A stretch of 19,412 nt of DNA from Gemmatimonadaceae bacterium (GTDB taxonomy: Bacteria > Gemmatimonadota > Gemmatimonadetes > Gemmatimonadales > Gemmatimonadaceae). Under the pieces are notes generated by a model. The model worked only from the letters and a program-made list of their open reading frames with translations, was not told the origin of the DNA and did not search any database. Positions 1 to 19,412 of this stretch are shown piece after piece. The translations under genes and the position numbers were made by a program. The DNA is taken from assembly GCA_051859245.1 (NCBI GenBank), contig JBHYGA010000011.1, positions 1 to 19,412 of the forward strand, written 5' to 3'. Position 1 is the first letter of the stretch. Every line of letters begins with the position of its first letter.

Positions 1-72
1 CGAAAGGCCAAATGGCCGTGGGCTCCCGCTACTGGGCCGAATGACCGAATCAGAAACTGCAACTGCAACTGC
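1..72. repeat. Right arm of dispersed palindromic element (copy 1, truncated by window start), ending in (AACTGC)x3
   Basis: Reverse complement reads GCAGTT-GCAGTT-GCAGTTTCTGATTCGGTCATTCGGCCCAGTAGCGGGAGCCCACGGCCATTTGGCCTTTCG, matching the arms at 7251, 12242 and 19349. Confidence 0.9.
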
Positions 73-80
73 CCCTGAGA

Positions 81-782
81 CTACCTCCGCAACGCATCCG
101 GCGTCCACGTGAGCCCAACCGCGATCGCATCATCTCCGCCGTATTGATCCGCGCCGCTGAATAGCACTGATGTGCGCAGCGAGAGCCGTGGATTGATGTT
201 GAAACTCGCACCAATATCAAAGTTCAGCGACACATCCGACTGGCTGCGGCCACGCGAAGAACAACTCCCGCAAATATCAATCGACACACGCGGGTGTACG
301 AACGGCGTGATTGCCATGCCCTGATCCAACTCGAACGTGTGGCCGAGCGACACACCAACGGGCAAGCGCACACTCGACCGTCCGTCTGAAATCGACGCAC
401 CAAGTCCGGCCGTCAACAAAAAATCAATCGGCAGATCGCTGGTCGCGCGCATGAGGTCATATCCGAGCGTTCCCGCAAAAAACAACGCCACTTCGGAGCC
501 GCGCGCACTGGGATCATACAGGCCGGCATCCAAGCCGAAGTGCATCTGCGGCGAGATGCCCTCGCGCCACTGGAACATCATCATGGTTCCGCGGCTGCCG
601 ACCACCGCACCGGTATAATCGCGCTCGGAAACAGACGGGATCTGCAGCGCAGGATAATTCAGCGCCTGTGCACCGGCCGATTTTCCGCCAACGAGAAATA
701 CAGCGGCAAGCACCGCTGCACCGCGAACAAACGGACGCGCGATCGATGTTTGAAACCGTGCCGCGAACAATGAAGACACCAT
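81..782 (-). CDS. Hypothetical exported protein, probable outer-membrane beta-barrel
   Basis: ORF 81..881, start moved to ATG at 782. Signal-peptide-like segment (AAVLAAVFLVGG..AGA-Q) and alternating beta-strand patterns (LNFDIGASFNI, AVGLTW). Start and fold are inferred. Confidence 0.7.
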   Translation of the reverse strand: MVSSLFAARFQTSIARPFVRGAAVLAAVFLVGGKSAGAQALNYPALQIPSVSERDYTGAVVGSRGTMMMFQWREGISPQMHFGLDAGLYDPSARGSEVALFFAGTLGYDLMRATSDLPIDFLLTAGLGASISDGRSSVRLPVGVSLGHTFELDQGMAITPFVHPRVSIDICGSCSSRGRSQSDVSLNFDIGASFNINPRLSLRTSVLFSGADQYGGDDAIAVGLTWTPDALRR

Positions 783-1607
783 GTGACGCTCCGGGGAGTG
801 ACAAAAAACGCGCGAGGAACGCGCGACTACTGACTGGTTATGTGCACTGGCTAGTACGTACCAATGATTGGACGGTTCCACTCGCGCAAAGGGTTGCGCC
901 TACTTCGGGACCAGAGGCGAATCGGCCTGAAGCATCGCGCGTTGCGAAGTGCGTACGCTCTTCACTTCGTACGAGGAGGCAGCGGTTGTGGTTATTTAGC
1001 GAACGGATCTGTACCTCCGACATCCCTAATCCCCGAATCCCGCGACCTTTTGGGTAACGCGTTCTCTCGGCGGCAAAAAGTGGCGTTAGAGGTTTTCGAG
1101 AGTACCTTAGCGGAACGAGAGATGAGAATCGCGACCACTGGCCGCTGCCAAGAGAATCCTTTCAGAGATTGACCAGAGCTCCCTTCGCTCTCTTGCCTTC
1201 ATGAGATTAGAGATATTTGGCAACCCGCACCGCTGACCTGTGATCATAAATCGCGGAACTGAAAACTGAAGCATCAACAGTACCACCAGCCTTGCGAGTC
1301 CCTCCGTCCCAGAAATTCCCCGCTGCGGGCTAAATGACCGTCCCGCCGTGCTTCAGGGGCTCGGAAGTGGCTTGCGCGCTCGTGGAGCGAGCGAAAGTCA
1401 GCGGCTATTGGATCGCCAGTGAACCTCCTGCACCTGTGGCGCCGCGACCGTGTAAAGCTACGAGCGCGCTTGCGAGGGTTTGACGCAAGACGTACGTTCG
1501 CGATCCGAAGTCGTGGTACTCACCACTATTCGCCCTGCCAAGTCAATCCGACTCATCGAAAACGCAGGGACGAGCTCGACTCTCTCGCTCACTCGTCCGC
1601 CACCCAC

Positions 1608-2165
1608 ACGTCCACGTCCAAGTCGCGCTCTGTTGGGTCTCTAGCGCTGGCGCTCCTCTCATGCTGTGCGCTCCTGATGTCGGCTATTGCTTGTGGCGGC
1701 GAGCGTCGCGACTACCGCGGCGACCCCGAGGGAATAACCGGACCCAGGCTGGACGTCGACACAGCATGGTGCTACACAACACCGTCGAAGTGCCTCGCCA
1801 TTTACAGGGGTATCCTCCACCTGCAGAGTCATTCGAATCCGGATTGCGTAGACTTGGGCGATAGAGCCTACGGGAGATTCTACGGCGACGCGGGCAACTT
1901 TCAAGACCACACCGCTCCGACTGGCCAGACCTATCAAATGGGCGTTGTGATGAACTACACGGGCGGAGGCTGGTCGGGCCATGAGCCAGCCAACGGCGAT
2001 ATCTTGGTCTCACAACACTTCAACTCGAGCAATCCCGATGGCGCGATTGGAGGGTTGATTGCGCATGAGGAGATGCATCACCAGGGATACCGGCATACCT
2101 ACACTACGGGGAGTATCAACCACGATTTAGAAATTTATGAGAAACAATCTGCGTGCACCGTCTAG
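1608..2165 (+). CDS. Putative lipoprotein zinc metallopeptidase (HEXXHXXGXXH); start uncertain, possibly a pseudogene
   Basis: Within ORF 1419..2165: basic n-region, hydrophobic stretch and AIA-C lipobox-like motif. HEEMHHQGYRH at 2064-2096. No ATG before the signal peptide (ACG at 1608, next ATG at 1677). Confidence 0.6.
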   Translation, partial: TSTSKSRSVGSLALALLSCCALLMSAIACGGERRDYRGDPEGITGPRLDVDTAWCYTTPSKCLAIYRGILHLQSHSNPDCVDLGDRAYGRFYGDAGNFQDHTAPTGQTYQMGVVMNYTGGGWSGHEPANGDILVSQHFNSSNPDGAIGGLIAHEEMHHQGYRHTYTTGSINHDLEIYEKQSACTV

Positions 2166-2188
2166 TGCCCATTCCGACCCATCGTGCC

Positions 2189-2764
2189 ATGAAAGCCTAT
2201 ACAGTAGCCATTCGTTCGTTCCTTTTCGTCGTCTTTCTGATTCTGCCAGCTGCGGCGGACGCTCAGCAAGGCGCGGCAGACACGCCAGAAGGAAGGAAGC
2301 GTGCGATTGGCTCGGTGACGGACTCGATCTTGCGGTTGATGTCTACGCGTTTCTCCTTTGTGGAGGCGACCGTCCTGCTCATTGAGCACCCAGCGTTGGC
2401 CGAAGCGGTTGGGGCGCCGACCGACTTGGAGTGGTTGCCGCGCGGCGTTCGATCTGTAAACAGCGCTGAGCATCTCGGTTCGCTAAATCTTTGGGTGCAG
2501 TGCTGGCTTCATCGGCGGCAGGCCAAGTTGCAATGCCCTGAAACGCGAAGCGCACTGCTAACACGACCCAGTCTTAAGCGGCTCGCGAACGGAGATTATT
2601 CGTTTTCAGGGTTTCTTTGGCTGCCTTATCCTGCGGAAGTGCTGAGCGGCGCGAAACCCGCTAACGACTTTCGAGAGTCGCCATTCTCGGCTGTTACCGC
2701 TCTCGTGCGCTACAAGGACGGCGCCTGGACGATTGTCGGGTTTGATGTGATCGCTTCTGGTTAG
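2189..2764 (+). CDS. Hypothetical secreted protein (191 aa)
   Basis: ATG at 2189 gives MKAYTVAIRSFLFVVFLILPAAADA, a typical Sec signal peptide with an A-D-A cleavage site. Starts 23 nt after the upstream stop. Confidence 0.65.
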   Translation: MKAYTVAIRSFLFVVFLILPAAADAQQGAADTPEGRKRAIGSVTDSILRLMSTRFSFVEATVLLIEHPALAEAVGAPTDLEWLPRGVRSVNSAEHLGSLNLWVQCWLHRRQAKLQCPETRSALLTRPSLKRLANGDYSFSGFLWLPYPAEVLSGAKPANDFRESPFSAVTALVRYKDGAWTIVGFDVIASG

Positions 2765-2844
2765 AATTCGCGCGCGAGTTGCGCTGCGCATCTCGTGATG
2801 CGCCCGCAAAGCGGCATGAGCTCGGCCCCACAACCGACGGATGC

Positions 2845-2883
2845 GAATCGGGCCGGGCAGCAATCGCTGCTCCGGCCCGATTC
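2845..2883. terminator. Strong hairpin between convergent genes, just 3' of atpC
   Basis: GAATCGGGCCGG-GCAGC aatc GCTGC-t-CCGGCCCGATTC, a 17-bp stem with one bulge. No clear U-tract on the minus strand. Confidence 0.55.
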
Positions 2884-2886
2884 ACT

Positions 2887-3150
2887 TTACTCGGCGGCGG
2901 TCGCCGCTTCGGTGACCACTCGCACCGTATCGTCGACCACTTGCAGAAACCCGCCGGACACATTGAACCGGCGCATGCCCTGCCCCGATTCAACCTTGAG
3001 CGTGCCGGTGCCGAGCAGCGTCATCATGGGCGCGTGCATCGGCAGTATTCCGACCTCGCCGTCGAACGCCGGCGCCGTCACCGACGACGCCGAACCTTCG
3101 TACAACACCTGCTCCGGCGAAATCACGGAGACCTGCAAGGTGCCAGCCAT
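2887..3150 (-). CDS. atpC: ATP synthase F1 epsilon subunit (short form, 87 aa)
   Basis: LQVSVISPE..., GEVGILPMHAP, VSGGFLQV motifs; directly downstream of atpD. Confidence 0.95.
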   Translation of the reverse strand: MAGTLQVSVISPEQVLYEGSASSVTAPAFDGEVGILPMHAPMMTLLGTGTLKVESGQGMRRFNVSGGFLQVVDDTVRVVTEAATAAE

Positions 3151-3156
3151 GGCGCC

Positions 3157-4641
<1,485 letters not shown>

Positions 4642-5502
4642 TTACTCGAGCGCCGCGGCGCCGCCGACGATCTCGGCGATTTCCTGCGTGATCTGCGCCT
4701 GACGCGCGGAGTTGTAAGTGCGACGCAGCAACGTGATCATGTCGCTCGCATTGTCGGTCGCATTCTTCATGGCTGTGCGGCGCGCACTCTGCTCGCCGGC
4801 CACAGTTTCCACCAGTGCGCGATACACCAGATTGCGCACGTACGCGGGCAACAGCGCTTCCACCAACACTTCGGCGCTCGGCGCCAGCAGGAAGTCGCGC
4901 GGTGCGCCTTGTGTCGCCGGCGGGACAACCGGCACCACCTGATCGGTTGTGGGCGGCGTGGACAACGCCGACTGGAACTTCGCATACGTCACGTACACGC
5001 CGTCCAGATCACCCTTGGCAAAACGATCGGTCAATCCGTCAATCAACGATGCCGCATCAACTGCCGTTGGACGATCGGTAATGTCGATGCGCTCGCTGTT
5101 GATCGCGCGGCCGAGGTACTTGAAAAACGCAATGCCCTTCTTGCCCACAATGTGCAGCTCAACGGTCGTGCCCTGCTTCTCGAACTCGGCGATCCGCTGA
5201 CGCGCTTCGCGAATGAGATTGGTGTTGAACGCACCGCACAGTCCACGATTCGCCGTGAGCAACACCAGCGCCACCTTGCGCTTGCTCGCCGGCTGACGCA
5301 GCAGCGGAAACTGCTCGGCAATATCCGGTCGTACGAGACGTGACAGCACATCGGCCAGCGCCAACGCGTACGGACGCGCTGCCGCGACCCGATCGGTCGC
5401 ACGTTTCATTTTGCTGGCCGCGACCATCTCCATCGTGCGCGTAATCTTGCGCGTGTTCTCGACGGATTTGATGCGACCTTTGAGTTCGCGTCCTTTAGCC
5501 AT
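4642..5502 (-). CDS. atpG: ATP synthase F1 gamma subunit
   Basis: RIKSVENTRKITRTMEMVAASK, RGLCGAFN and ARQAQITQEIAEIVGGAAAL motifs. Confidence 0.99.
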   Translation of the reverse strand: MAKGRELKGRIKSVENTRKITRTMEMVAASKMKRATDRVAAARPYALALADVLSRLVRPDIAEQFPLLRQPASKRKVALVLLTANRGLCGAFNTNLIREARQRIAEFEKQGTTVELHIVGKKGIAFFKYLGRAINSERIDITDRPTAVDAASLIDGLTDRFAKGDLDGVYVTYAKFQSALSTPPTTDQVVPVVPPATQGAPRDFLLAPSAEVLVEALLPAYVRNLVYRALVETVAGEQSARRTAMKNATDNASDMITLLRRTYNSARQAQITQEIAEIVGGAAALE

Positions 5503-5529
5503 GATTCTCGCGTGGTATCGGCGCGCCGA

Positions 5530-7098
5530 TTACTTGAACTGCGCGTTGAACGCTTCGAGACCGCGCTTGAGATCGGCTTCGGTTTCCTTTGACAGTGCCT
5601 TGCTCGTGCGGATCGTATCACCAACCTGCGGATACTTGGCGCGCATGAACTCGTGGAAACCCTGCTCCCACTCGCGCACCTTGGCCACGGCAATCGCGTC
5701 CACAAAGCCGTTTGTCACCGCGTAGATCGACATGACCTGCGCTTCGACTGAATACGGCGCGTACTGACCCTGCTTGAGGATTTCAACCGTGCGCGCACCA
5801 CGCTCCAGCTGACGCTTGGTGGCAGCGTCAAGATCTGACGCGAACGCGGAGAACGCTTCGAGTTCGCGGAACTGCGCGAGGTCAAGACGCAAACGGCCGG
5901 CAACGGACTTCATGGCCTTGGTCTGCGCGGAACCACCCACGCGCGACACGGAGATGCCAACGTTCACGGCCGGACGCACACCGGCGTTGAACAAGTCGGT
6001 TTCCAGGAAGATCTGACCGTCGGTGATGGAAATAACGTTCGTCGGGATGTACGCCGACACGTCACCGGCCTGCGTTTCAATGATCGGCAGCGCGGTGAGT
6101 GAACCACCGGGCTTGAGGATCGTCTTGCCGTCCACTACGCCCTCGTCTTCGCGCAGCTTGGCCGCGCGCTCGAGCAAACGTGAGTGGAGATAGAACACGT
6201 CACCCGGATACGCTTCGCGGCCCGGCGGACGACGCAACACGAGCGACAGCTGACGATACGCGGCGGCCTGCTTGGACAAGTCGTCGTACACGCACAACGT
6301 GGGCTTGCCTTCGTTGTACATGAAGAACTCGGCCATCGCGCAACCTGAGTACGGCGCGATGTACAACATCGGCGCCGGATCGGACGCGCTGGCGGCCACC
6401 ACGATGGTGTACTCCATCGCGCCCGCTTCTTTCAAACGATCAACAACGCCGGCAATCGTGGACGCCTTCTGACCAATGGCGACGTACACACAAATCACGC
6501 CCTGGCCTTTCTGGTTGATGATCGTGTCGATCGCGATCGCGGTCTTACCCGTGCTGCGGTCACCGATGATGAGTTCGCGCTGACCGCGACCAATCGGGAT
6601 CATGGAGTCGATGGCCTTGATACCGGTCTGCATCGGCTCTTTCACGGGCTGACGCACGATGATACCGGGCGCCGGCGATTCCACTTTGCGCGTGGACGTG
6701 GCGTTGATGTCGCCAAGTCCGTCAATCGGACGACCAAGCGGATCAACAACGCGCCCGATCAGTTCGGGACCGACCGGCACTTCAAGTACGCGGCCAGTGC
6801 GACGCGCTTCGTCGCCTTCTTTGAGCTTGAGATAGTCGCCAAGAATAACGGCGCCAATGTTGTCTTCTTCGAGATTGAGTGCGAGACCGGTAATCGACTG
6901 ACCGGTTTCGCTTGACGTGATCTCAAGCATTTCACCGGCCATGACTTTGCCGAGGCCGTAAATGCGCGCGATACCGTCCTTCACCTCGAGCACGGTACCG
7001 ACTTCGTCGATGTCGAGTTCGTGCAGGTCGGCGGCTTCGATTTCACGAAGCAGAATGTCCTTGATTTCGCCGGGACGAAGTGCGGTCTGGGTAGCCAT
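5530..7098 (-). CDS. atpA: ATP synthase F1 alpha subunit
   Basis: GDRSTGKT Walker [27 protein letters not shown] and [10 protein letters not shown] motifs. Start set at ATG 7098 ([12 protein letters not shown]). Confidence 0.99.
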
Positions 7099-7188
7099 GG
7101 AATCGGGCGGAAAGTGACTCAGGAAATAGGATCGGCGGCGCACGCTGCGCGGTGCCTGCGCAAAGCTAGCGCGCCGTTTGTGGTATAG

Positions 7189-7208
7189 CTTGTGAAAAAT
7201 ATCACAAG
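7189..7208. promoter_or_regulatory. Palindromic operator CTTGTGA-AAAATA-TCACAAG (Rex-like / CRP-like) upstream of atpA
   Basis: Exact TGTGA-N6-TCACA; one mismatch from the Rex consensus TTGTGAA-N4-TTCACAA. AT-rich stretch in GC-rich DNA, ~90 nt upstream of the atpA start. Confidence 0.7.
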
Positions 7209-7248
7209 AGCCTATTGGGGGGCAAGGAGGAGGGGTTTCTGGGGTGTT

Positions 7249-7485
7249 TTGCAGTTCCTGATTCGGTCATTCGGCCCAGTAGACGGAGCCCAAGGCCATT
7301 CGGCCTTTCGGCCTCGCATTTTCGGAAGGTTGCACAGGGCACCGATGCCGGGCGGTTTCTGGGCCGCAACGAACTGCCGGGATTGTCGCTCTGTGCGGCG
7401 TTTCGAAACGGTGAGGCCGAAAGGCCGAATGGCCGTGGGCTCACGCCACTCGGCCGAATGACCGAATCATTTGAACTGCAACTGC
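7249..7485. repeat. Complete palindromic element (copy 2): ~90-nt inverted arms, 47-nt centre, (AACTGC)x2 tail
   Basis: Left arm 7251-7340 pairs imperfectly with right arm 7388-7479. Ends 4 nt from the AraC stop codon. Confidence 0.95.
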
Positions 7486-7489
7486 CCTG

Positions 7490-8311
7490 CTAGTCCTCGG
7501 CGTCGGGGTTCTCCGCCTGGGTCTGGGCAAACCGCTCCAGCAAATCCACGGTCCTCAACCGACTGAGACTGCTCGCCTTGGCGCCCACCAGCCGCTGCGT
7601 CGTCCCTGACAAATGCGACGAACTGGCAAACCCAAGCACCTCTGCCACATCCCGCACATCGAACCCCGGATTCTTAGCCAACTCAGCGGCCGCCAGCACG
7701 CGCACCAGATCGATCACCCGCTTGAGCGTTGGTGCGGTGCCATTGGCAAAGCTCCGTGACAAGTGCTCACGCGATACCCCGTGTTCTTTCGCCAACTGAT
7801 CTGTCCGCACCGGCCGGCCAGCTCGTCGCACCAGGCTGCGCCACACATTGAGCTGCAGCGACGTGCGCAAGCCGAGCGCTTCGGGAGGATCGGTCAGCGC
7901 AGCGTCAAAGCGCTGACTGAAACCGCGCTGATGTACGAGCAGGCGAGCCGCAACGTCGTCAATGCCTTCAACCAGTACTTCGGCTGCACCACATTCCACC
8001 GCGCGGCCAACGAGCGGCGCATCGGTGGGCAACAGTGGTGTGACAAAAAAGAATGGGGCCGACGGAAAATCTTCTGCGAGCTGCAGCACCCGCCCCACTT
8101 CTTCGCCAAAACCACCGTCGAGTACCACCGCATCGATGAGATGATGCGTGAGTGCGTCGAGGAGTTCATCGCGCGTTTTCACCGGCAACAAGTGCGCACG
8201 GCGGCGCGGAAACGCCGTGCGCACCAGAGCGCGCGCACGTTCGCGCTTGAGCATGGTGCACACGACCGGCACACCAGTTCCGGCCGGATCAACAGGTGCG
8301 CGCACCGTCAT
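7490..8311 (-). CDS. AraC-family transcriptional regulator with receiver-like N-terminal domain
   Basis: Double HTH (TDQLAKEHGVSREHLSRSF; VRDVAEVLGFASSSHLS) and an N-terminal IDAVVLD receiver-like strand. Start moved to ATG 8311, just after the NUDIX stop. Confidence 0.85.
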   Translation of the reverse strand: MTVRAPVDPAGTGVPVVCTMLKRERARALVRTAFPRRRAHLLPVKTRDELLDALTHHLIDAVVLDGGFGEEVGRVLQLAEDFPSAPFFFVTPLLPTDAPLVGRAVECGAAEVLVEGIDDVAARLLVHQRGFSQRFDAALTDPPEALGLRTSLQLNVWRSLVRRAGRPVRTDQLAKEHGVSREHLSRSFANGTAPTLKRVIDLVRVLAAAELAKNPGFDVRDVAEVLGFASSSHLSGTTQRLVGAKASSLSRLRTVDLLERFAQTQAENPDAED

Positions 8312-8315
8312 TGCG

Positions 8316-9479
8316 CTAGTTGCTCGCCGATGATGGTGTGGCGTCAGACAGCGGCCCGCGATCGAGTACCATCGCATTCGCACGTGTGAGCACGGAGCGC
8401 GCGTTTGCGTACGAGATCAAGCGTGTTGCCTCGTCAAAGCGCGCCCAGCGACAGGCGGTAATGCCCTCTTCGCGCTGCGGTATCGTACGCGCGTGCTCGG
8501 TGCGCATGAGAAAGAAGTGACACACTTTGTGCACGAGCTTGCCGCGAAAACGAAAAAACCAATCAATCGTTTCGATTTCGCCGTCGAGCTTCAAGTGCGC
8601 AATGCCGGTCTCTTCCTGCACTTCACGCACCGCTGCTTCGGCCGGCATTTCGCCCGCTTCCAGGTGACCTTTGGGAAATCCCCAGTTGCGATAGCTGTCG
8701 CGAATGAGCAGAAACAGCGCTTCCCCGTCGTGCACGCGATACACAATGCCGCCGGCAGACGTTTCGAGTTCGGCGCGCGCGCGTCGTGCGGCGACGGCCT
8801 CGGGCGAATCAGACGCGGGTGTCACGGGCGTCGCTGCCACGCGCGCGTTCGATGCTGCGGACGCGATCACGCCCGCATTCGGCTCGGTAATCGCGCCGGC
8901 TTTTGCACCGCGATTGCCCTTTGCGCTCCGATGACGTTTGCGCTTGCGCTTCGCCCCGCCGTTGCGATTCGCGTTAACGCTCGTGCTTGCGTCGGCGTTT
9001 GCGTTCGTGTTCGCGTTCGTGTTCGTGTTCGCGTTCGTGTTCGCGTTCGTGTTCGCGTTCGTGTTCGCGCTTGCGTTCGCGCTCGTGTTCGCGCTTGCGT
9101 TCGCGTTTTCAGGTGCGTTTGACGTCTCGCCATGCAACGCGTCGCCGCTCGCCACGGCATTCCGGTTGGCCGGCTTCCGGCGCGAGCGACGCTTGCGCCG
9201 AGCGTTGCGCTTTGCGCCAGTGTCGGAGGTCGGGCCCGCGCTGCTTCCGAGCTTCGCCTCTGCGGCCAACACATTCGCCGACGTGTCGGCGCCCGCATGC
9301 TGCGCGCCGTCAGCAGATGCTGCCTTGCGACGACCGCGCCCGCGACGACGTCGACGACGGCGCGCGTCACCAGATCGCACGTCGCCAGACGGCGCAGCGC
9401 CAGAAGGCGAAGCGCCAGACGGCGCTGCGCTATCGGGCGGCACCGCGGTGCGCCGGTCGTCGTCGGACCGTGCTGTCAT
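8316..9479 (-). CDS. NUDIX hydrolase (Ap4A-hydrolase-like) with long Arg-rich, low-complexity N-terminal extension
   Basis: Nudix box GHLEAGEMPAEAAVREVQEETGI preceded by SAGGIVYR and WGFPKG. Start overlaps the upstream stop (ATGA, 9476-9479). Confidence 0.85.
   Translation of the reverse strand: MTARSDDDRRTAVPPDSAAPSGASPSGAAPSGDVRSGDARRRRRRRGRGRRKAASADGAQHAGADTSANVLAAEAKLGSSAGPTSDTGAKRNARRKRRSRRKPANRNAVASGDALHGETSNAPENANASANTSANASANTNANTNANTNANTNTNANTNANADASTSVNANRNGGAKRKRKRHRSAKGNRGAKAGAITEPNAGVIASAASNARVAATPVTPASDSPEAVAARRARAELETSAGGIVYRVHDGEALFLLIRDSYRNWGFPKGHLEAGEMPAEAAVREVQEETGIAHLKLDGEIETIDWFFRFRGKLVHKVCHFFLMRTEHARTIPQREEGITACRWARFDEATRLISYANARSVLTRANAMVLDRGPLSDATPSSASN
8995..9108. repeat. 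Coding hexamer tandem repeat, ~19 units of GYGTTC-like sequence, encoding NA/NT/SA dipeptides
   Basis: gcgttc gtgttc gcgttc gtgttc gtgttc gcgttc... read directly; in frame within the NUDIX ORF. Confidence 0.9.
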
Positions 9480-10219
9480 GCCGCCGATTCGAGTGTCGAG
9501 CGGCCTTCAATAAACTGACGCACCACCGGATCGGTGGAGTGCTGAATCTCGTCCACCGTGCCCACCTGACGCACCGTGCCTTCATACAGCATCGCGATGC
9601 GTGTGCCCACGCGGTACGCGCTGCGCATGTCGTGCGTAATCACAATGCCGGTGACGCCCAGCGTGTCGCGCATGCGAACCATCAGCTCGTCGATCACCGC
9701 CGACGTCACTGGATCAAGGCCAGTCGTGGGTTCGTCGTACAGGATGTACTTGGGGCGCAGCGCCACGGCGCGCGCGATACCAACACGTTTGCGCATACCG
9801 CCCGACAACTCGGCCGGAAACCGGTGCGCCACATCTTCGAGATCCACGAGCGCCAGCGATTCTTCCACGCGCTTGTCGATTTCTGCTTTGCTCAACTCAC
9901 CTTGTTTACGCAGCCCCATGGCCACGTTCTCGCCAATGGAGAGCGAATCGAACAGCGCCGCAAACTGGAACACATAGCCGATCTTTGAACGCAGCTTCAC
10001 GAGTTCACGACGCGGCAGCGTATCCACGCGCACGCTGTCCACCCACACTTCACCAGCGTCTGGTTCCAGCAGGCCGACGATGTGCTTGATGGCCACCGAC
10101 TTGCCGGTGCCCGAGAAGCCAATGATCACCATGGTCTCGCCCTCTTTGACATCGAGGGAGAAACCCTGGAGCACTTTCTTCTCACCAAACGCTTTGTAAA
10201 CGTCTTTCAGCTGGATCAT
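9476..10219 (-). CDS. mlaF: ABC transporter ATP-binding protein, MlaF/Ttg2A-like
   Basis: GFSGTGKS Walker A, GYVFQFAALFDSL, ELSGGMRKRVGIARA and LYDEPTTGLDPVTS motifs. Confidence 0.88.
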   Translation of the reverse strand: MIQLKDVYKAFGEKKVLQGFSLDVKEGETMVIIGFSGTGKSVAIKHIVGLLEPDAGEVWVDSVRVDTLPRRELVKLRSKIGYVFQFAALFDSLSIGENVAMGLRKQGELSKAEIDKRVEESLALVDLEDVAHRFPAELSGGMRKRVGIARAVALRPKYILYDEPTTGLDPVTSAVIDELMVRMRDTLGVTGIVITHDMRSAYRVGTRIAMLYEGTVRQVGTVDEIQHSTDPVVRQFIEGRSTLESAA

Positions 10220-10305
10220 GGTCTGGGACGGGGAGGATCACGAATATGTCGTCGGAATCACGCTGCCACCAGCACCCGGGTGCGGTCAAGAGCGTGCCGA
10301 TGCAA

Positions 10306-10338
10306 CAGCGCCCGCGATCGTGATGATCGCGGGCGCTG
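10306..10338 (-). terminator. Perfect 14-bp hairpin just downstream of the sigma factor stop
   Basis: CAGCGCCCGCGATC gtgat GATCGCGGGCGCTG. Weak U-tract, so it may be a stability or attenuating hairpin. Confidence 0.55.
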
Positions 10339-10344
10339 GAGTGA

Positions 10345-11235
10345 TCAGGCGGCAAAGCTGCCGAGTGCTCGTCCGACGTCGCCTTCGCGCAGTCGCTTAA
10401 GCGCACGATCGCGCAACTGTCGCACGCGTTCGCGTGTGACGCCGAGCATGGAACCGATTTCTTCGAGCGTATGCTCGCGTCCGCCTTCGAGACCAAAGTA
10501 GAGACGCAACACTTTGGCATCACGCGGTGGCAACGTGGACAGCGCCGATTCGATTTCATCGGTGAGGAAGCGGTTCATGGCTTCTTCTTCGGCGTCGGGC
10601 ATTTCGTCGGCCACGAAGCGTTCGATCAGCGAACGATCGCCGTCTGGATCCATGGGAGCATCAAGACGCACATCGCCGGTGTTGAGCGCGGCGAGTGACT
10701 GCACAACGTCAACCGACAGACCCGTAACCTGCGACAACTCTTCCGGCGACGGCTCGCGACGCAACTTCTGACGCAGAATTTCCGACGCCTTGATGATGCG
10801 CGACAGATCGGCGGTACGATTGAGCGGCACACGTACCGTACGGCCCTGACGTGCGAGCGACGAGAGAATCGCCTGACGAATCCACCACACGGCGTACGAG
10901 ATGAACTTGACGCCCTGATCGGGATCGAACTTTCGTGCGGCCGTGAGCAGGCCAACGTTGCCTTCGCCGATCAGATCGATCAGCGGCAGACCACGATTCT
11001 GATATTTTTTGGCGACGGAAATGACGAATCGCAGGTTGCGCTTGACGAGCTCCTGCAGCGCATCCTGATCACCGGCGCGGATTTTTTTCGCGAGCTCGAT
11101 TTCTTCCGCGCCCTTGAGGAGCGGATACGTGCTCACTTCGTAGAGGTACTGGTCGAGGATGTCGCGCTCGGGCTCGGAGGGTGCAATCCCCGCCGGGGCT
11201 GCACGACGCCGTTTCCGCTTGACCTCAGTTGTCAT
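10345..11235 (-). CDS. RNA polymerase sigma-70 factor, RpoD/SigA-like, lacking region 1.1
   Basis: Region 1.2 DQYLYEVSTYPLL, region 2 NLRFVISVAKKYQNRGL...SYAVWWIRQAI, region 4 TLEEIGSMLGVTRERVRQL. Only 296 aa. Confidence 0.95.
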   Translation of the reverse strand: MTTEVKRKRRRAAPAGIAPSEPERDILDQYLYEVSTYPLLKGAEEIELAKKIRAGDQDALQELVKRNLRFVISVAKKYQNRGLPLIDLIGEGNVGLLTAARKFDPDQGVKFISYAVWWIRQAILSSLARQGRTVRVPLNRTADLSRIIKASEILRQKLRREPSPEELSQVTGLSVDVVQSLAALNTGDVRLDAPMDPDGDRSLIERFVADEMPDAEEEAMNRFLTDEIESALSTLPPRDAKVLRLYFGLEGGREHTLEEIGSMLGVTRERVRQLRDRALKRLREGDVGRALGSFAA

Positions 11236-11446
11236 GGTCTATTCCTGTAGACGCTGTCTGCGCCAGTCCGAATGAATCAGAAGAACTCACCTTCACATAT
11301 CCCGGAGGCAACGCGCCAGCCGGTCTCATCGCTGAGTTTTCGGCGGCGGCGGAGGCGATCCGGGGCCAGCCCATCAAGATACCGTTTCGTGACCAATGCG
11401 CCAGTCTTTGAAAGTGCGGTCAATCGGACAATCGCAGTCACGTCGC

Positions 11447-11475
11447 TTGACGACTGACATACACCCTGCTACTCT
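11447..11475 (+). promoter_or_regulatory. Sigma-70 promoter of the tRNA operon
   Basis: TTGACG (11447-11452), 17-nt spacer, TACTCT (11470-11475); ~50 nt upstream of tRNA-Ala. Confidence 0.7.
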
Positions 11476-11527
11476 TCGCGGTTCCTGACGCCCTCGCTGC
11501 CATTCGTGGTGGCGGGGGTGTCGCGCC

Positions 11528-11600
<73 letters not shown>

Positions 11601-11682
11601 TGCCGCTGGGATGAAGAGCGGGTAGCGCTTGAATCTCACGGTTTGGCCCTGCGGCAGTTTGGGGTTGTAGATCAGGAAATGT

Positions 11683-11755
11683 GCGGGAATAGCTCAGTTG
11701 GTAGAGCACAACCTTGCCAAGGTTGGGGTCGCGGGTTCGAGTCCCGTTTCCCGCT
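11683..11755 (+). tRNA. tRNA-Gly(GCC)
   Basis: Acceptor GCGGGAA/TTCCCGC, anticodon arm CAACC-TTGCCAA-GGTTG, discriminator U. Confidence 0.97.
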
Positions 11756-11821
11756 CTCTTTTTGACCGTAGTGCAGCGCCCCAACCCGGCGAACGGTGTT
11801 CGTCGGGTTGGTCATGTGACC

Positions 11822-11895
11822 GGGTCGTTAGCTCAGTTGGTTAGAGCGCCACGTTGACATCGTGGAGGTCACAAGTTCGAGTCTTGTACGACCCA
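11822..11895 (+). tRNA. tRNA-Val(GAC)
   Basis: Acceptor GGGTCGT/ACGACCC, anticodon arm CCACG-TTGACAT-CGTGG. Confidence 0.97.
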
Positions 11896-11992
11896 TGCAC
11901 GAACGTTTCTGGCCTCTGGCGAGACGCACTTTTGCTCGTTATGTTGCCATGCTCGACTGGTTTGGCGTTCGCGTCCGGCCACCGAGGGTTTT

Positions 11993-12066
11993 GCGCCCGT
12001 AGCTCAATTGGATAGAGCATCTGACTACGGATCAGAAGGTTAGAGGTTCGAGTCCTCTCGGGCGCA
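11993..12066 (+). tRNA. tRNA-Arg(ACG)
   Basis: Acceptor GCGCCCG/CGGGCGC, anticodon arm TCTGA-CTACGGA-TCAGA. Confidence 0.97.
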
Positions 12067-12106
12067 CTGATAGATCAGCTCACACAGTGTGAGTTGCGCG
12101 GTTCCT

Positions 12107-12182
<76 letters not shown>

Positions 12183-12197
12183 AACCGCACGAACTGT

Positions 12198-12235
12198 AAA
12201 ACGGCGGAAGACAACGAGTCTTCCGCCGTTTTTTT
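12198..12235 (+). terminator. Rho-independent terminator of the tRNA operon (possibly bidirectional)
   Basis: AAAACGGCGGAAGAC aacga GTCTTCCGCCGTTTTTTT. Confidence 0.9.
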
Positions 12236-12237
12236 GT

Positions 12238-12483
12238 TTTTGCAGTTCCCGATTCGGTCATTCGGCCGAGTGGCGGGAGCCCACGGCCTTCTGGCCATTC
12301 GGCCTCTCTTTTTCGTACGACGGCACCGAGCACGAATGCTGATTGCGGTTCTCACCGATACCCCGTCGAGGTCAACAACGGATGTGTGCTCGGTGCAACC
12401 TTTCGAAACTGCGAGGCCGAATGGCCAAAAGGCCCTAGGCTCCCGCCACTCGGCCAAATGACCGAATCAGGAACAGCAAAAGC
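12238..12483. repeat. Complete palindromic element (copy 3), inverted relative to copy 2; 56-nt centre; degenerate AACAGC-AAAAGC tail
   Basis: Left arm 12242-12331 pairs with right arm 12388-12477. The reverse complement of its right inner arm (GGCCTCGCAGTTTCGAAAGGTTGCAC) matches the copy 2 left inner arm (GGCCTCGCATTTTCGGAAGGTTGCAC). Confidence 0.95.
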
Positions 12484-12484
12484 A

Positions 12485-12519
12485 AAAGCCCCCGCACTGC
12501 AACGCAGTGCGGGGGCTTT
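12485..12519 (-). terminator. Rho-independent terminator of susC/susD
   Basis: AAAGCCCCCGCACTGC aac GCAGTGCGGGGGCTTT; reads into TTTTGCTTTT on the minus strand; 13 nt after the susD-like stop. Confidence 0.88.
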
Positions 12520-12532
12520 CGTCGTCAACCGC

Positions 12533-14128
12533 TTACGAACACCGCGGCAAATTCACCGGACACCGTTCCGGATCCGGCGCCGGCGCACTGGCTGCACCAC
12601 CGGGTCCGCCAAAGGTGTAATTCTCCAGCAGCAGCGTGGCCAACTCACGGCCAGGAATCGGGAGATGCACGAACGTATTCTCCGGCAGCGTCTGCCAGCC
12701 GCGTGCATCCATGAACGCCGTGACGCCGTTCACGCCCAGCATCTCAATCCCCTTCTCGTAGCGCAGCGCATCCCAGAGGCTGCCGCACGTGCCGTTGAGC
12801 TTGCGTGGCACGCAGCCAGCTTCATTCGGCGGGCCATCGATCGTGACGGCCGGCAGCTTGCCATTGGCAACACGCGAGCGATTGATCAGCGGCACTGCTT
12901 CTGCAGCACGATTCAGGCGAATCAGTGCTTCCGCCTTGATCAGATCCATTTCGGTGGTCGTAATCGCCAGCTGCGGCCCCGCCTGCCACGTGAGTCCGGT
13001 GCCGTTGCGGCCATAGAAATACCACGAGTAGCGCCACGTACCGCGACTCGCCACAAAAATGTTGTTCAGGTTGTAACCAACATATGAACCCGGCGACGCC
13101 GGCCCGGCATCACCCTGAATTCGGCGATCCTTGGTCCGCATCTGAAAGGCCGCGCGGCTCTGCAGCGGTGTTGCAAGCCAGTTGCGATAGCCTTCCGTTG
13201 AATCGGCCGCGCCGAGCAGGAAATAACTCGGACGACCGAAGTCGCTGGGACGACCAGCGGTGCGCAAACGCGCCACCAGCCGCTTCCAATCATCAAAGAA
13301 AATGTCGGGCTGCGCGATCGGCGCGAAGTCGGTCTGGATGCCAGCGTCAACACGACGAATCACCTCGGCCCAATCCACCGCCGCACGTTCCGCACGTGAG
13401 CGCGCGCCATACACCATCAAGCGCGCAGCGTACGAGTTGATCACGCGTACGAACTGGTCACGCGTGAGCGCCGTAAACAGCCACGATTCCGCCGGCAACG
13501 TAAAGTTGGCCGTGCCTGCTGCCGCAATCGCGCCGTCGAGCTGTGAAATCGCAGCATCGATCATTCCATCATACGGCGTGAACTCCGGGTTCGCCGTAAT
13601 GGCGACGAGATCGGTGTTCTCGTCCACGACGATGCCCTTGTCGTAGTACAAACCGAGGTATCCGTGCGACACGCCCTGAATGAACTTCGCCACGGACTTC
13701 GCGCGTGCGGTCCGCGTTGCATCAACAATCACGAGGCCATCATCAATGGCCACGAGTGCGTCGTTGACGCTCGAGATCGTGCGATACAAACCGTACCACG
13801 GCGTTTCTGCCACGGCACGGCGCGCATTGACCGGACTGTTGTTCCAGGCCACGCGCGGCAGGTCTGACACTTCAAGCTGGCCGAAATCGGCAAAGCCTGA
13901 CGTGATTTCCTGCGCCATCGTGGCGAACGCCCACGATGGATAATCGTCGTGACCAGACACTGGCCAGAACGTGCGGAAGGACGAGGCCACAAACGATTCC
14001 GTTGACACTGGCTGCTGTGTCGCACGTTCACGGTCGGGCAGGTTGGGATTCGCGACGTCGAGGTCCTGACAGCCAGCCAGCAGCAGTCCAGCACCTGCGA
14101 GCGTCAATGTGCGCATGAGAGTAGTCAT
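12533..14128 (-). CDS. RagB/SusD-family outer-membrane lipoprotein
   Basis: Lipobox LLLAG-C followed by DLDVANPN; EMDLIKAEALIRLN...AVPLINRSR and ALRYEKGIEM motifs; directly downstream of a SusC-like gene. Confidence 0.9.
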   Translation of the reverse strand: MTTLMRTLTLAGAGLLLAGCQDLDVANPNLPDRERATQQPVSTESFVASSFRTFWPVSGHDDYPSWAFATMAQEITSGFADFGQLEVSDLPRVAWNNSPVNARRAVAETPWYGLYRTISSVNDALVAIDDGLVIVDATRTARAKSVAKFIQGVSHGYLGLYYDKGIVVDENTDLVAITANPEFTPYDGMIDAAISQLDGAIAAAGTANFTLPAESWLFTALTRDQFVRVINSYAARLMVYGARSRAERAAVDWAEVIRRVDAGIQTDFAPIAQPDIFFDDWKRLVARLRTAGRPSDFGRPSYFLLGAADSTEGYRNWLATPLQSRAAFQMRTKDRRIQGDAGPASPGSYVGYNLNNIFVASRGTWRYSWYFYGRNGTGLTWQAGPQLAITTTEMDLIKAEALIRLNRAAEAVPLINRSRVANGKLPAVTIDGPPNEAGCVPRKLNGTCGSLWDALRYEKGIEMLGVNGVTAFMDARGWQTLPENTFVHLPIPGRELATLLLENYTFGGPGGAASAPAPDPERCPVNLPRCS

Positions 14129-14143
14129 GTTATCAGCGCTCGC

Positions 14144-17100
14144 TCAGAAAGTGATCTCAACACTACCCGTGAACGTGCGGTAGCGAGGATAGTCGAAGCT
14201 GTCGAGACGGTTGATCACGCTGCCAACTTCCGGGTCGTAGCCCTTGTAGTCAGTGAACGTGAGCAGGTTGCGTCCGATCAGAGAGAATGACGCGCCGCTC
14301 GCGCCGAGGCGGGCAAGCGGTGCGGCCCAGCGCGTGGGCAGCCGATACTTGACCGACAGTTCGCGCAGCTTCACAAAGCCTGCATCTTCCACGAAATAAT
14401 CCGTCGGGCTGTTGGCCGCGTACAGATTCACGTAGTACTCGATTGGCTTCTTGAGTTCCTGCGGCTTGCCAGTCTGGTCCACATCACTGCTGCGTCCGTA
14501 CTGATACATGCGCTGATTGGTCTGGTTGTACGCGTTGCCACCAACCTGCGCGTCCCACAACATGAACACGCTGATGCCGCCCCAGTTCACGTTGTTCGAA
14601 ATACCAAAACGGAAATCAGGATTGCCATCACCAATGCGCGTGACCGCGGCACTGCCGGTGGAATCGCGCGCCGTAATCGGCATGCCCCACAGGTAGCTGT
14701 TCGCGCCAATGGGAACCGCGGGCGAGCCCCACAGGCGCTTGCTCTCACCTTCGGTGTAGCTGTTGCCGGCACCAACGTACACGAGCAGTCCTTCGTCGTT
14801 CACGGCGAACTCACCGGCGCGCGCTGCGGCATCAGCCGGCAGTTCACTCGCGTCCTTGATGAAACGGAAGCCGTACATCGCACCGAGCGTTTCGCCAGCG
14901 CAACGGAACAGAATCGTTCCGGTGGAGAAGCAGCTGCGGTTGAACTCAGTGATCTTGTTGCGTGAACGATCCGCCACAACACCCAGGCGCCAGCTGAAGT
15001 TGGCACCTTTCACGATATCGGCTTCAATCGTGCCTTCGAGCGTATTGCCCGTGACCGTGCCCGCGTTCTGCCACTGATTGGCGAAACCGAGATAGCCAGC
15101 GAGCGGAATCAGAATGAGCTGATCGGTGGTGGTTTGCGTGGCGTACGAGAGCTGCACCGACACACGATCCTTGATGATCGCATCAATGCCGTACTCCGTT
15201 TCCTTTGATTCTTCTGGCTTGAGCAAACGGTTGCCGAGATTCTGCTTCACGACACCGCCACCCTGGCTGAACGTGAACGTCTCGTACTGATCGTCGAAAT
15301 CCGGTCGCGTACCGGCGGTACCCTGCGACGCACGCAGCTTGAACTCATTGATCGACGCAAACGGCCACCACTCTTCCTGTGACAGGCGATAGGCGCCGCT
15401 CACTCGGTAGTACCAGTTCTCCTGCTCGTCCGCGCCGAACAGCGAGCTGCCGTCAAGGCGACGCAGTGCGTCCACAATGATCTTGCCATTGTAGTCGGCC
15501 GCCACGCTGCCGATGTAGCTATTCGTACGAACGATCTGTGTGCTCGATGAGACAAACCGCGACTGCGCGTTGTCGAGACTCTTCACACCGGGCGTCGCGA
15601 GCACTTCGCCTTCGGCGGTCGTGAGTTCATTTGTTTCGCGCTCCAGCAACGCACGCGCGGTGCCGCGCAGCGTGAACGCACCGACACGCTTGAGTACGTT
15701 CGCGCTGCCCCACGCATTGATCGCTTCCGTGGTACCGGTGAACTGCGAAATTTCACCCGGACCACCTTCACCGAATCCTTCGGTCTTCACGCCCGCGTCA
15801 AGGAACGTATTGGTGCGACGATCCGAGCGGTCGTAGCTGAGATTCATGTCGAAGTTCAACCAGCTCGCCGCGTTGTACCGGGCCACAATGCCGCCCTGCG
15901 TACGAGCGCGCTTGCGCTGATTCTCTTCCGTAGCCAACACATACAGCGGGTTCTCTTCGCGACCTTCTGGATCAAGCTGGAACGCGTACGGCGTACCATC
16001 GGGATCTGGCGTACGCAGATCAATATCCGGCGCCTGATTGATCAGGTCGAAGAACGTGTCGCCGTAAAGATTCTGGCGCTCCGAGCGGCTGTGAAACGCG
16101 CTGAAGCTGAGCGACAGCTTGTCGGTGGGACGATGATCAAGATTGAGACGGAAGTCATTCTGGTCGTAGCGACCGCTGTTGAGCACCACACCGTCTTCAC
16201 GCTGGTTCACGTACGAGAAGAACCAGTTTGTTTTGCCGCCATTCTGCGCAATGTTCAGCGAATTGCGAATGAAGTTGCCTGGATCAAAAAACCGATCAAC
16301 CTGATCGAATACCTGATCCGGATACTTCTGATCCTGGAAGCGCTCGTACACCGGGCGTGGCACACGTGTGTTCCGATCAACAACGGCGCCGGCAGCATTC
16401 ACGTACTGCCCGGCGTCGTTCAGCAGGAAGGAATGCGACTGCGCCCATTTGACCGGCGCGTTCAGCGAGTTGGATCCGTATTCGGAGCGCACCGAAAAAC
16501 GCGTTTCGCCCTCGGCCAGCCCCGAACCACGACGCGTGGTGATCTGGATAACACCAGACGCCGCGCGCGCACCGTACAGTGACGCGGCGGCGGCACCTTT
16601 CACCACTTCCACGCTCTCAATATCCATGCTCTGCAGATCAGCGCTCGCCGCACCGAAGGCTTCGGTCTGAATCACACCGTCCACAACAATGAGTGGCGAG
16701 TTCGACTTGTTGATACTCGTTGGTGTGCGCAATACGATGTTCGTACCGCCGCCGGCCTGTCCCGACGGGACAACAGACACTCCGGCAATTTTGCCCTGGA
16801 TTGTTTCGAGCGCGTTCGTGGCCGGTACCGGCGCGTTTTCTGCCGTCACACGACCAACCGTAAACGGCACACGCGTGCCCGACGCCGGATCGACAACACC
16901 GGTCGTCACCATCGCTTGCAAACTGAGTCCGGCCGCCGCCATCGCCAGATCGCGCGTGGTTGTCGCACCAGCGGTTACCGCAACATTCGTGCGGCTGAGT
17001 GGGCGATAACCAAGTCGACGCAACTCGATCGTGTACGTGCCAACAGGAACAGCGGGAAATGCATACCGACCCGATTCATCACTGCGTGCTTCCAGCTGCG

Positions 17101-17359: not shown

Positions 17360-17420
17360 GGTTCCTCCGAAGGGAGAGAGCGCGGGGGAGTGAAGGAAAC
17401 GGCGAGGTTCATGCAACTGG

Positions 17421-17460
17421 AAAACACAACCCCGCCCGGAGCATGGCTCAGAGCGGGGTC
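17421..17460 (-). terminator. Terminator-like hairpin upstream of susC
   Basis: Minus strand reads GACCCCGCTC-T-GAGC cat GCTC-C-GGGCGGGGTT followed by GTGTTTT. Confidence 0.5.
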
Positions 17461-17504
17461 TTCACACAACACGGGATCGGCAGCCGATGACTACGCGATT
17501 GCCG

Positions 17505-17705: not shown

Positions 17706-17835
17706 GCGAGGCTCGTGAAAAGGCTCTGATGTGCGGACCGGAAGCACGCCGCACGTCGATTCCCCAGCATACGTGAGCGGGTGGCCGCTTGCAAGTGCGC
17801 TGGGCCCAAGCTCTCATAGCTGCTCCCAGCCTACG

Positions 17836-19110: not shown

Positions 19111-19342
19111 GGTGGTATTGGTTGAGCGGTGAGAACGGCAAATGCCGGGAGTGTGCCATTTGGTCACGCCGCAACCGGCCACGGTTGCCGGTGCGTGATG
19201 AACCGCATCAGCGTTTGAAGATCGCGCCAGCGTAAACGGCCGCTTCGATGAGCAGCGCGAGGATCGCGAGGCCAAGAAATGTGCGGACCAGCCATTTGGG
19301 CGGTCCGGAGATTGGTTCGGGCATCAAGAACTATACACAGTA

Positions 19343-19412
19343 GCAGTTGCAGTTCCTGATTCGGTCATTCGGCCCCTGTGAAGGAGCCCACGGCCATTCG
19401 GCCTTTCGGCCT
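19343..19412. repeat. Left arm of palindromic element (copy 4, truncated by window end)
   Basis: GCAGTT-GCAGTTCCTGATTCGGTCATTCGGCC-CCTGTGAAG-GAGCCCACGGCCATTCGGCCTTTCGGCCT. Confidence 0.92.

Follow-up and report, generated by a model that had tools for sequence, protein, structure and literature searches.

Lineage-specific palindromic repeats are common in bacteria, and several described systems resemble, in one respect or another, the element considered here. The enterobacterial repetitive intergenic consensus sequences, or intergenic repeat units (ERIC/IRU), are imperfect palindromes of more than 100 nt that occur between genes, are often transcribed, reach a moderate copy number and often occupy the same sites in related species; we know of no transposase for them. 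In E. coli, bacterial interspersed mosaic elements (BIMEs) are mosaics of alternating repetitive extragenic palindromic (REP) units found after operon ends, which bind gyrase and IHF. [quoted passage not shown] The subject of this work is a palindromic intergenic element of about 240 nt present at four loci of a stretch of 19,412 nt, the window from here on, from Gemmatimonadaceae bacterium GCA_051859245.1 (contig JBHYGA010000011.1, positions 1-19,412 of the forward strand). Its layout recalls that of REPINs, hairpin-forming doublets of REP sequences that, in the consulted portion of one report, have conserved halves separated by a fixed-length spacer of lower conservation, can form hairpins and show compensatory changes (PMC3116915), and that persist vertically over long times according to the consulted portions of two later reports (10.1101/2022.05.22.493013; 10.1101/2021.07.10.451892).

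A sequence-only reading of the window had proposed a dispersed family of non-coding hairpin elements, and this family turned out to be genuine, with 24 further sites in a sister species and predicted hairpin folds throughout the complete window copies. Taken alone, such a family would be a modest finding. What stands out is the constraint acting on the arms at the sites where they reside, and we lean, on balance, towards a hairpin repeat of a REPIN/ERIC-like kind that dispersed in the distant past, whole units at a time, and is today maintained as a sequence-specific element.

Architecture of the element

The anatomy was derived from 22 aligned complete copies (44 arms). Each copy is made of two mirror-image arms of ~100 nt around a centre of ~45-55 nt, which gives a total of ~240 nt. 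Read from the outside in, an arm starts with one to three GCAGTT hexamers, followed by CC, box 1 (TGATTCGGTCATTCGGCC), a variable 9-mer, GGAGCCCA, a single variable base, box 2 (GGCCATTTGGCCTTTCGGCCTC), three more variable bases, the motif TTTCG(A/T)A, a short stem of variable sequence and a GCAC clamp, after which come the centre and the mirror image of the same order. The boxes are runs of 8-nt iterons (ATTCGGTC, ATTCGGCC, ATTTGGCC and TTTCGGCC), and every arm contains the TTTCGAAA motif together with the inner GCAC/GTGC clamp. The ends of the element are fuzzy, since the number of hexamers varies between one and three and in some copies a terminator T-run stands in their place. The aligned centre segment (columns 105-183, inner GCAC/GTGC clamps included) measures 66-76 nt, and its mean pairwise identity among the 22 copies is 36%, in comparison with 79.5% for each arm. 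The weak similarity that had been claimed for the centres is thus borne out: their length is kept while their sequence drifts freely and is essentially unrelated between copies. Symmetric arms built of iterons in this manner are directly usable in protein pull-downs.

In the window, the copies and their parts are as follows.

E1, 1..77, no strand assigned: right arm, bearing three AACTGC hexamers at its end, of a copy that the window start truncates.
E2, 7236..7490, no strand assigned: complete element, bounded by the start of atpA (minus strand, ~7143 or 7098) and by the stop codon of an AraC-type gene (minus strand, 7490-7492).
E2 left arm, 7247..7342, no strand assigned: GCAGTT hexamer, box 1, 9-mer, GAGCCCA, box 2, TTTCG motif and inner GCAC clamp.
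E2 centre, 7343..7386, no strand assigned: fast-evolving, only partly self-complementary.
E2 right arm, 7387..7485, no strand assigned: mirror image of the E2 left arm, with its variable 9-mer at 7443-7451.
E3, 12226..12494, no strand assigned: complete element between a tRNA-Pro gene (end 12181, plus strand) and an open reading frame (ORF) in the SusD position (stop 12533, minus strand).
E4, 19338..19412, no strand assigned: left arm of a copy truncated by the end of the window.

A repeat search of the window retrieved three left arms (7249-7314, 12240-12305 and 19347-19412) and three right arms (1-75, 7418-7492 and 12418-12492), and an nhmmer profile built from the 44 arms recognised exactly six arms (E from 9e-27 to 2e-17, the next window match being at E 8.6), with no extra degenerate or solo arms. 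All six therefore lie at the four loci where the sequence-only reading had placed them. That reading had also located the two complete elements correctly, although the palindrome reaches slightly further than it had proposed, to ~7236-7490 and ~12226-12494, through the one to three GCAGTT hexamers. E1 and E4 appear as half copies because the window, probably a contig that was broken within the repeat, starts and ends inside them. The 17-mer GATTCGGTCATTCGGCC occurs six times in the window at up to two mismatches, when 0.02 occurrences are expected and six were reached in none of 200 shuffles. In the left arm of E2 this 17-mer is box 1 (7260-7276), which is followed by the variable 9-mer (7277-7285), GAGCCCA and box 2 (GGCCATTCGGCCTTTCGGCCTC). 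The inverted arms of E2 (7259-7351 and 7377-7469) are 93 nt each, 81% complementary and 25 nt apart, and those of E3 (12232-12333 and 12386-12487) are 102 nt each, 85% complementary and 52 nt apart; the two variable 9-mers of E3 (12268-12276 and 12443-12451) are exact reverse complements of each other.

Each complete copy forms a single predicted hairpin of ~100 bp. The RNA folds of the two complete window copies reach -182.2 and -173.4 kcal/mol (z -16.7 and -18.0), and E2 folded as DNA reaches -99.6 kcal/mol (z -14.1), while the folds of single arms do not surpass those of shuffled sequences (z -0.55 and -1.49). The centre of E2 on its own gives a fold with z -2.2. The idea of the centre as a strict extension of the hairpin proved only partly true, with z at or below -3.3 in 6 of 22 centres and above -0.7 in 9 of them. 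Across the alignment, the two arms remain paired with each other in 96.6% of 1336 cells. Moreover, changes on both sides were seen in 16 of 61 pairs, compared with 7.1 +/- 1.3 in shuffles (16 was reached in 0 of 500), and sliding the pairings by 1-3 columns left only 1-6 pairs with changes on both sides. Such double changes fall mainly in the variable 9-mer and at one base beside box 2.

Constraint on the arms at shared sites

Three stretches of the window could be aligned to a metagenome-assembled genome (MAG) of a sister species, Gemmatimonadaceae bacterium Bin_80_sub, whose loci are referred to here by L numbers. Positions 3034-8813 align to L005 with 91% identity, 12420-19412 to L021 with 84% and 1-925 to L018 with 77%. 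Every one of the four window elements has its counterpart in place:

E1 ortholog, L018 6355-6590: complete copy, right-arm identity 84%.
E2 ortholog, L005 4210-4451: left arm 84.4%, right arm 83.8% and centre 68.2% identical.
E3 right-arm ortholog, L021 1-67: 91% identity.
E4 ortholog, L021 6927-7172: complete copy, arm 73% identical, with 7 of 9 positions of the variable 9-mer different.

Conversely, the aligned parts of the relative contain no element that lacks a window counterpart. Empty sites at orthologous loci, which would have spoken for mobility, were not encountered (4 of 4 are occupied), and this argues against recent mobility at the distance of sister species only.

The changes accumulated in these resident copies are very unevenly distributed. 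Among the 61 paired columns, 32 are invariant in all 44 arms, when 3.2 would be expected had the 179 observed differences fallen at random (maximum of 11 in 5000 simulations). Circularity was avoided by classing columns as invariant or variable from the other 20 copies, and under this scheme E2 and its L005 ortholog differ at 0 of 74 invariant and 23 of 81 variable columns (Fisher p 6e-8); three other close pairs behave alike, with differences at invariant columns that amount to 0 of 74, 3 of 77 and 0 of 74. As a measure of the divergence between both species, identity at third codon positions is 58-66% in five neighbouring genes that do not belong to the atp operon and 79-85% in the atp genes, and across the same split the E2 centre is 68% identical and the arms 73-91%. 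Judged from these alignments, about half of the arm positions have been frozen at resident sites, while the centre drifted at about the neutral rate. No change at 74 invariant positions in the face of ~40% synonymous divergence is the pattern to be expected of a retained working element and not of decaying mobile DNA. In-place constraint of this kind is relevant to the debated matter of what repeats of the REP type do for their hosts.

Distribution and age of the family

An exact pattern of 22 specified bases, which would miss diverged relatives, was scanned across 185,579 species-representative genomes and returned 23 loci, 22 of them from the Bin_80_sub MAG. The remaining locus (L022, from a Methanomicrobiales MAG) was discarded as a 23-nt chance match in coding-looking sequence. 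A wider distribution is possible because diverged relatives would escape such a pattern; as found here, this is an old family confined to one lineage, comprising the organism of the window and one sister species of the Gemmatimonadaceae. A similarity search of the ~246 kb fetched from Bin_80_sub gave 48 arm hits at 24 distinct sites, one further copy being a duplicate at the overlap of two contigs: 21 of these sites are head-to-head (one cut by a contig start), two are circularly permuted and one is a half at a contig end. The long contigs of this MAG are poor in copies, with one pattern match in a contig of 171 kb and two in one of 105 kb, and the family must therefore number tens of copies per genome, the four copies in 19 kb of the window being a local cluster. 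The high copy number initially proposed is in this regard too generous, as matches at 22 places and 24 sites in 246 kb mean tens and not hundreds.

The copies also tend to break contigs. The window starts and ends inside elements, L004, L014 and L021 of the relative start inside one, L023 ends 27 nt past another, and one contig start overlaps the end of a second contig within the same copy. Evidently, this repeat breaks the short-read assemblies of these uncultured soil-type bacteria.

A scan against Rfam (E up to 1) found, on the elements, no family that reached or approached its gathering score, and nothing at all on E2. The sub-threshold matches overlap the right end of E3 or the adjacent terminator: ctRNA_p42d (26.7 bits for a threshold of 50), mir-583 (24.9 for 80) and BASRCI408 (21.7 for 398). 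No match to E2 was obtained by distant-mode blastn in plasmid and phage collections, and a literature search on the arm motifs and on repeats of Gemmatimonadetes or Gemmatimonas found nothing relevant. The suspicion that the family was undescribed thus holds as far as it was searched. In kind, these are interspersed palindromic intergenic repeats like others already known, and they form a new family, for which we claim membership in none of the existing ones.

The unit of copying can be read from the variable boxes. Several 9-mer variants recur at different loci with their exact complement in the opposite arm, and the own right arm is the best partner of the left arm in 7 of 22 copies, from which it follows that whole palindromes and not single arms were copied. 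Sub-family signatures are present in both arms, and some copies that are sisters of each other occupy neighbouring intergenic gaps. The longest direct repeat in the 34-nt flanks averages 4.55 nt for the 22 true pairs and 4.73 nt for mismatched ones, so that the absence of a target-site duplication, already noticed in the window, is formally upheld. In one case the copied unit was larger: the L015 copy and the second L017 copy share ~57 nt past the element (L015 6490-6550 and L017 10221-10280), consisting of a terminator-like hairpin with the same stem and an inverted loop plus ~20 nt of flank that runs to the stops of a dihydrolipoyl-dehydrogenase-like gene and of clpP. This shared terminator, together with centres in opposite orientation, indicates that the copied unit once included the flanking terminator.

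Regarding age, the most similar pair of copies, the two of L012, are reciprocal nearest relatives with just 87.8% identity, and identity to a leave-one-out consensus ranges from 76 to 89%. The lack of near-identical copies and the four shared sites out of four mean that there is no sign of recent copying. Altogether, these data show that entire hairpin units were dispersed, with no duplication of the target, and that copying has been rare or absent since about the split of the two species. The copies sit in DNA free of genes, close behind stop codons and terminators, and for the most part between converging genes.

Two copies of the relative, at L001 ~9860-10095 and L007 ~6130-6360, are circularly permuted: the right half comes first, followed by a spacer of 18-20 nt and the left half. 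The permuted L001 copy gives a single long hairpin that is just as good, the stem normally found in the centre being on the outside (-107.7 kcal/mol as DNA, z -14.8). Both could stem from a tandem dimer or from an intermediate of circular or dumbbell form.

Origin and present role

How could such a repeat have arisen and been kept? In the reading towards which we lean, a hairpin repeat of the REPIN/ERIC type, copying would have involved a hairpin intermediate of single-stranded DNA, acted upon by an enzyme whose gene lies elsewhere, and the arms would now serve a sequence-specific purpose. They would most likely bind a protein on duplex or cruciform DNA, and read-through RNA arriving from either side may in addition be stopped or trimmed by this hairpin.

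A number of observations weigh against this reading. Mobility is inferred only from dispersal and sub-family structure, there is no gain or loss between the two species (0 of 4 sites differ), and what the arms do is purely inferred. No Y1/HUH transposase, the class of the REP-associated tyrosine transposases (RAYTs), and no DDE transposase was detected by Pfam scans of 15 window ORFs plus a set of 217 ORFs (212 from loci of the relative, and five window ORFs again), which cover ~246 kb of the carrier MAG; a single-copy mobilising gene would easily be missed in ~246 kb of one MAG. Nor does this reading account for the circularly permuted copies of L001 and L007. As for the covariation, it could reflect inheritance of sub-families that were already palindromic: its shuffle control ignores the kinship among rows, and complementarity within elements (84.2%) is barely above identity between elements (81%). 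Other intergenic DNA of the window is also 80-95% conserved between the species, and the conservation of the arms is exceptional only with respect to synonymous sites and to the centre. Finally, the frozen columns could owe something to gene conversion, because orthologous copies differ in their 9-mers box by box, each being exchanged as a whole: 7 of 9 positions are changed in E4, and E2 differs from its ortholog at 4 of 9 positions on the left and carries a different 10-mer on the right.

The alternative that survives best, which we still regard as unlikely, is that of an element built by the host and never mobile, either a bidirectional stop or insulator for read-through or a platform for a nucleoid, topology or partition protein, which was multiplied by occasional segmental duplication or recombination. 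The constraint on the arms in place, the occupation of all four orthologous sites, the flanking terminator included in the copied unit of one pair and the symmetry of the copies, which implies function in both directions, all fit such an origin. The positions of the copies are likewise suggestive. Among 21 classifiable sites of the relative, which we classified ourselves from greedy ORF calls, some of them with no family support, 11 lie between converging gene ends, close to stop codons, 6 between co-directional genes and 4 between diverging gene starts. At 17 of the 21 the element touches the 3' end of one gene or more, and the distance is often just 1-30 nt on both sides, which leaves no space for a separate terminator. 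On the other hand, a canonical terminator comes first, its T-run replacing the end hexamers, in E3 of the window (on both sides) and in copies of L008, L015, L016 and L017, and little RNA is expected beyond those of them that look efficient. In the window, the two sites concerned are the following.

Terminator-like hairpin with T-run of the tRNA cluster, 12198..12232, plus strand: 15 pairs, with the T-run running into the left end of E3.
Terminator-like hairpin with T-run of the SusD-position gene, 12483..12521, minus strand: 18 pairs, the strongest of the window, with a T-rich tail that overlaps the right end of E3.

These two strongest terminator-like sites of the window therefore bracket E3. 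Moreover, no U-tract follows the hairpin of the element, the four sites between diverging starts sit badly with a read-through stop, and at least 24 dispersed sites share 240 nt mostly with no common flanks, something hard to achieve by segmental duplication alone.

A second alternative, in our opinion improbable, replaces the tyrosine transposase by a structure-specific nuclease or recombinase system, with Uma2 as a RAYT-like partner or with the elements as recombination sites that bound small cassettes. It originates in three pairs of neighbouring elements that bracket small accessory genes in the relative:

L012 4918-6108: an intact gene for a Uma2-family (PF05685) nuclease at 5173-5853, between two elements.
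L008 9992-11767: an internally deleted Uma2 gene plus an unknown ORF, together at 10239-11516, between two elements.
L017 9313-10221: a four-helix-bundle gene (PF05635/TIGR02436) at 9619-10002, bracketed by elements and wedged between clpX and clpP.

The genes clpX and clpP are usually adjacent. The brackets enclose 2 of 2 Uma2 ORFs and the only PF05635 ORF of the fetched DNA, and just three intervals, with 4 of ~215 ORFs, have elements on both sides, as counted after the fact. The copies around the intact Uma2 gene are the reciprocal nearest relatives mentioned above, and the elements that flank the four-helix-bundle gene match best in their centres, which are oppositely oriented. Against this stand the small number of cases, three, in loci that were fetched precisely because of their elements, the window itself, with four elements and no Uma2 gene, and the distant relationship of the L008 pair (rank 20-21 of 21). 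An element-Uma2-element cassette moving as a block was rejected, as one of the two Uma2 genes is internally deleted and their proteins share 56 identities in a local alignment of 173 columns (32%, gaps included), and so was the idea that the copies around Uma2 are the masters of the family, given that their identity to the consensus places them 5-6 of 22. The element pairs would be accounted for by local duplication into whichever gap came next, with no link to the genes between them.

We consider the Uma2 association as a lead obtained after the fact and not as a result. In its most developed form, which we regard as a long shot, hairpin repeats and a Uma2-family PD-(D/E)XK nuclease would form a REPIN-like partnership lacking a tyrosine transposase, where the nuclease would recognise the arms or the hairpin and copy or maintain the repeats through a circular or dumbbell single-stranded intermediate, and the host would keep the repeats at gene ends for something useful that the complex does there. 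Such an intermediate would account for the two circularly permuted copies. In the portions of the literature on Uma2 endonucleases that we consulted, no link to palindromic repeats was found. The association is nonetheless a cheap and testable lead to the function of a very widespread nuclease family whose role is unknown.

Cut-and-paste transposition seems still less credible. The elements would be MITEs, that is, deletion derivatives of a DDE insertion sequence (IS) moved by a full-length IS elsewhere, and the ~100-nt arms would be long terminal inverted repeats with several iterons for transposase binding. Inverted arms with repeated 8-nt motifs are reminiscent of multi-site transposon ends, and the family is dispersed and non-coding as MITEs are. 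However, target-site duplications are missing, the ends are fuzzy, a DDE transposase is encoded by 0 of the 217 scanned ORFs, no copy in the fetched DNA has its arms around a transposase gene and no near-identical copies exist. Mobilisation in trans, as first suggested for these elements, is not supported, with four of four sites occupied in the sister species, a best pair at 87.8% and none of the expected transposases. As a separate observation, an IS110-family RNA-guided transposase (NF033542) is encoded at L016 6524-7597, 1.2 kb from the nearest element and with an AraC-type gene between them.

Lastly, genes for structured non-coding RNAs, namely long double-stranded hairpin RNAs processed into small RNAs, hardly come into consideration, since very stable predicted RNA hairpins and covarying pairs are offset by the absence of promoter-like sites at the elements and of Rfam matches, by G.T and A.C mismatches that are equally frequent (25 and 22 cells, in elements not oriented by transcription, and hence no strand-specific wobble signal), by a palindrome that is equally good as DNA, by a sequence frozen beyond what pairing alone would ask for and by several copies lying beyond canonical terminators, so that the structured RNA family once proposed finds no specific support.

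Gene neighbourhood in the window

The map of ORFs and Pfam domains confirms the intergenic position attributed to all copies. On the minus strand it comprises atpD (3157-4590), atpG (4642-5502), atpA (5530-7143), an AraC-type regulator (7490-8383), a NUDIX-domain protein (8316-9479), an ABC ATPase (9476-10219), a sigma-70 factor (10345-11235), the SusD-position ORF (12533-14128, no family), a TonB-dependent receptor (14144-17416) and an ORF of 479 aa (17836-19275). Five tRNA genes (Ala-GGC, Gly-GCC, Val-GAC, Arg-ACG and Pro-CGG) lie on the plus strand at 11528-12181 and are followed by a strong terminator and then by E3, which thus stands between the converging tRNA cluster and the SusD-position gene. 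E1 ends 4 nt before the stop codon (81-83) of the minus-strand ORF 81-881, the stop codon of the AraC gene is 5 nt from the end of E2, which lies ~100 nt upstream of atpA, and E4 is 63 nt upstream of the start of the minus-strand ORF 17836-19275. There is no credible ORF inside the elements, because frames are broken by indels between orthologous copies. In line with what had been noted for the window, family scans recognised no transposase or nuclease gene in it, five of its ORFs having no family at all.

Other features of the region deserve mention. The 92 nt between the atpA start and E2 (7144-7235) are 94.6% identical between the species, above the element itself, and are probably the promoter or leader of the atp genes. 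Beside E1, positions ~926-2839 have no counterpart in L018 (1-925 corresponds to L018 6530-7483 and 2840-3171 to L018 7472-7804) and represent a species-specific insertion or deletion; the two plus-strand ORFs in it (1419-2165 and 2153-2764) have no Pfam or NCBIfam match. A tandem repeat at 8956-9131, with a spacing of 12/18 nt and nine overlapping copies of a 68-nt frame, lies inside the minus-strand ORF 8316-9479, whose NUDIX domain is C-terminal, and the protein must therefore have a low-complexity repeat region.

Comparison with known systems

Among the described systems, integron attC sites share with the element the conserved outer boxes around a variable centre, and the three small accessory intervals bounded by copies bring cassettes to mind. 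Unlike attC sites, however, the elements measure 240 nt, are strongly conserved in sequence, have their end motifs in the opposite order to attC core sites and are scattered 5-7 kb apart among genes for ATP synthase, tRNAs, a sigma factor and transport instead of forming cassette arrays, and Pfam scans of the relative's loci detected no integron integrase. Correia/NEMIS elements are alike in being small and non-coding, with inverted ends, close to genes and with the potential for hairpins that act on transcripts, but the element described here differs from them by its lack of target duplication and its fuzzy ends.

The resemblance to REPINs goes further. Within what the consulted portions of the REPIN reports describe, both kinds of repeat have two conserved inverted halves, a less conserved spacer of fixed length and a long hairpin with compensatory changes, and both are extragenic, lack target duplications and persist vertically, here in one lineage. 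The differences lie in the halves, which are ~95-102 nt long and do not fold by themselves, when REP units are short imperfect palindromes; in the copy number, of tens and not hundreds; and in the absence of an abundant master sequence, as seen from the identities of the best pair and to the consensus. The REPIN/RAYT system also involves a RAYT, whose gene typically has the repeats at its sides and which has no equivalent among the ORFs scanned in the window and in ~246 kb of the carrier genome.

Like the ERIC/IRU sequences, the element is a long imperfect intergenic palindrome of moderate copy number, with sites common to related species and no known transposase. It has no sequence relation with them, is about twice as long, has arms built of iterons and a centre that drifts freely, and belongs to a different phylum. 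The similarity to BIMEs resides in units that are arranged head-to-head, and tail-to-tail in 2 of 24 sites, that come after operon ends and that, as proposed here, may bind protein; the units are nevertheless much longer than those of BIMEs, the arrays never exceed two arms and no binding protein is known for the element. By analogy, layout and evolutionary behaviour can be described as REPIN-like, while in habit the long palindromes of the ERIC type and the BIMEs come nearest to this Gemmatimonadaceae family.

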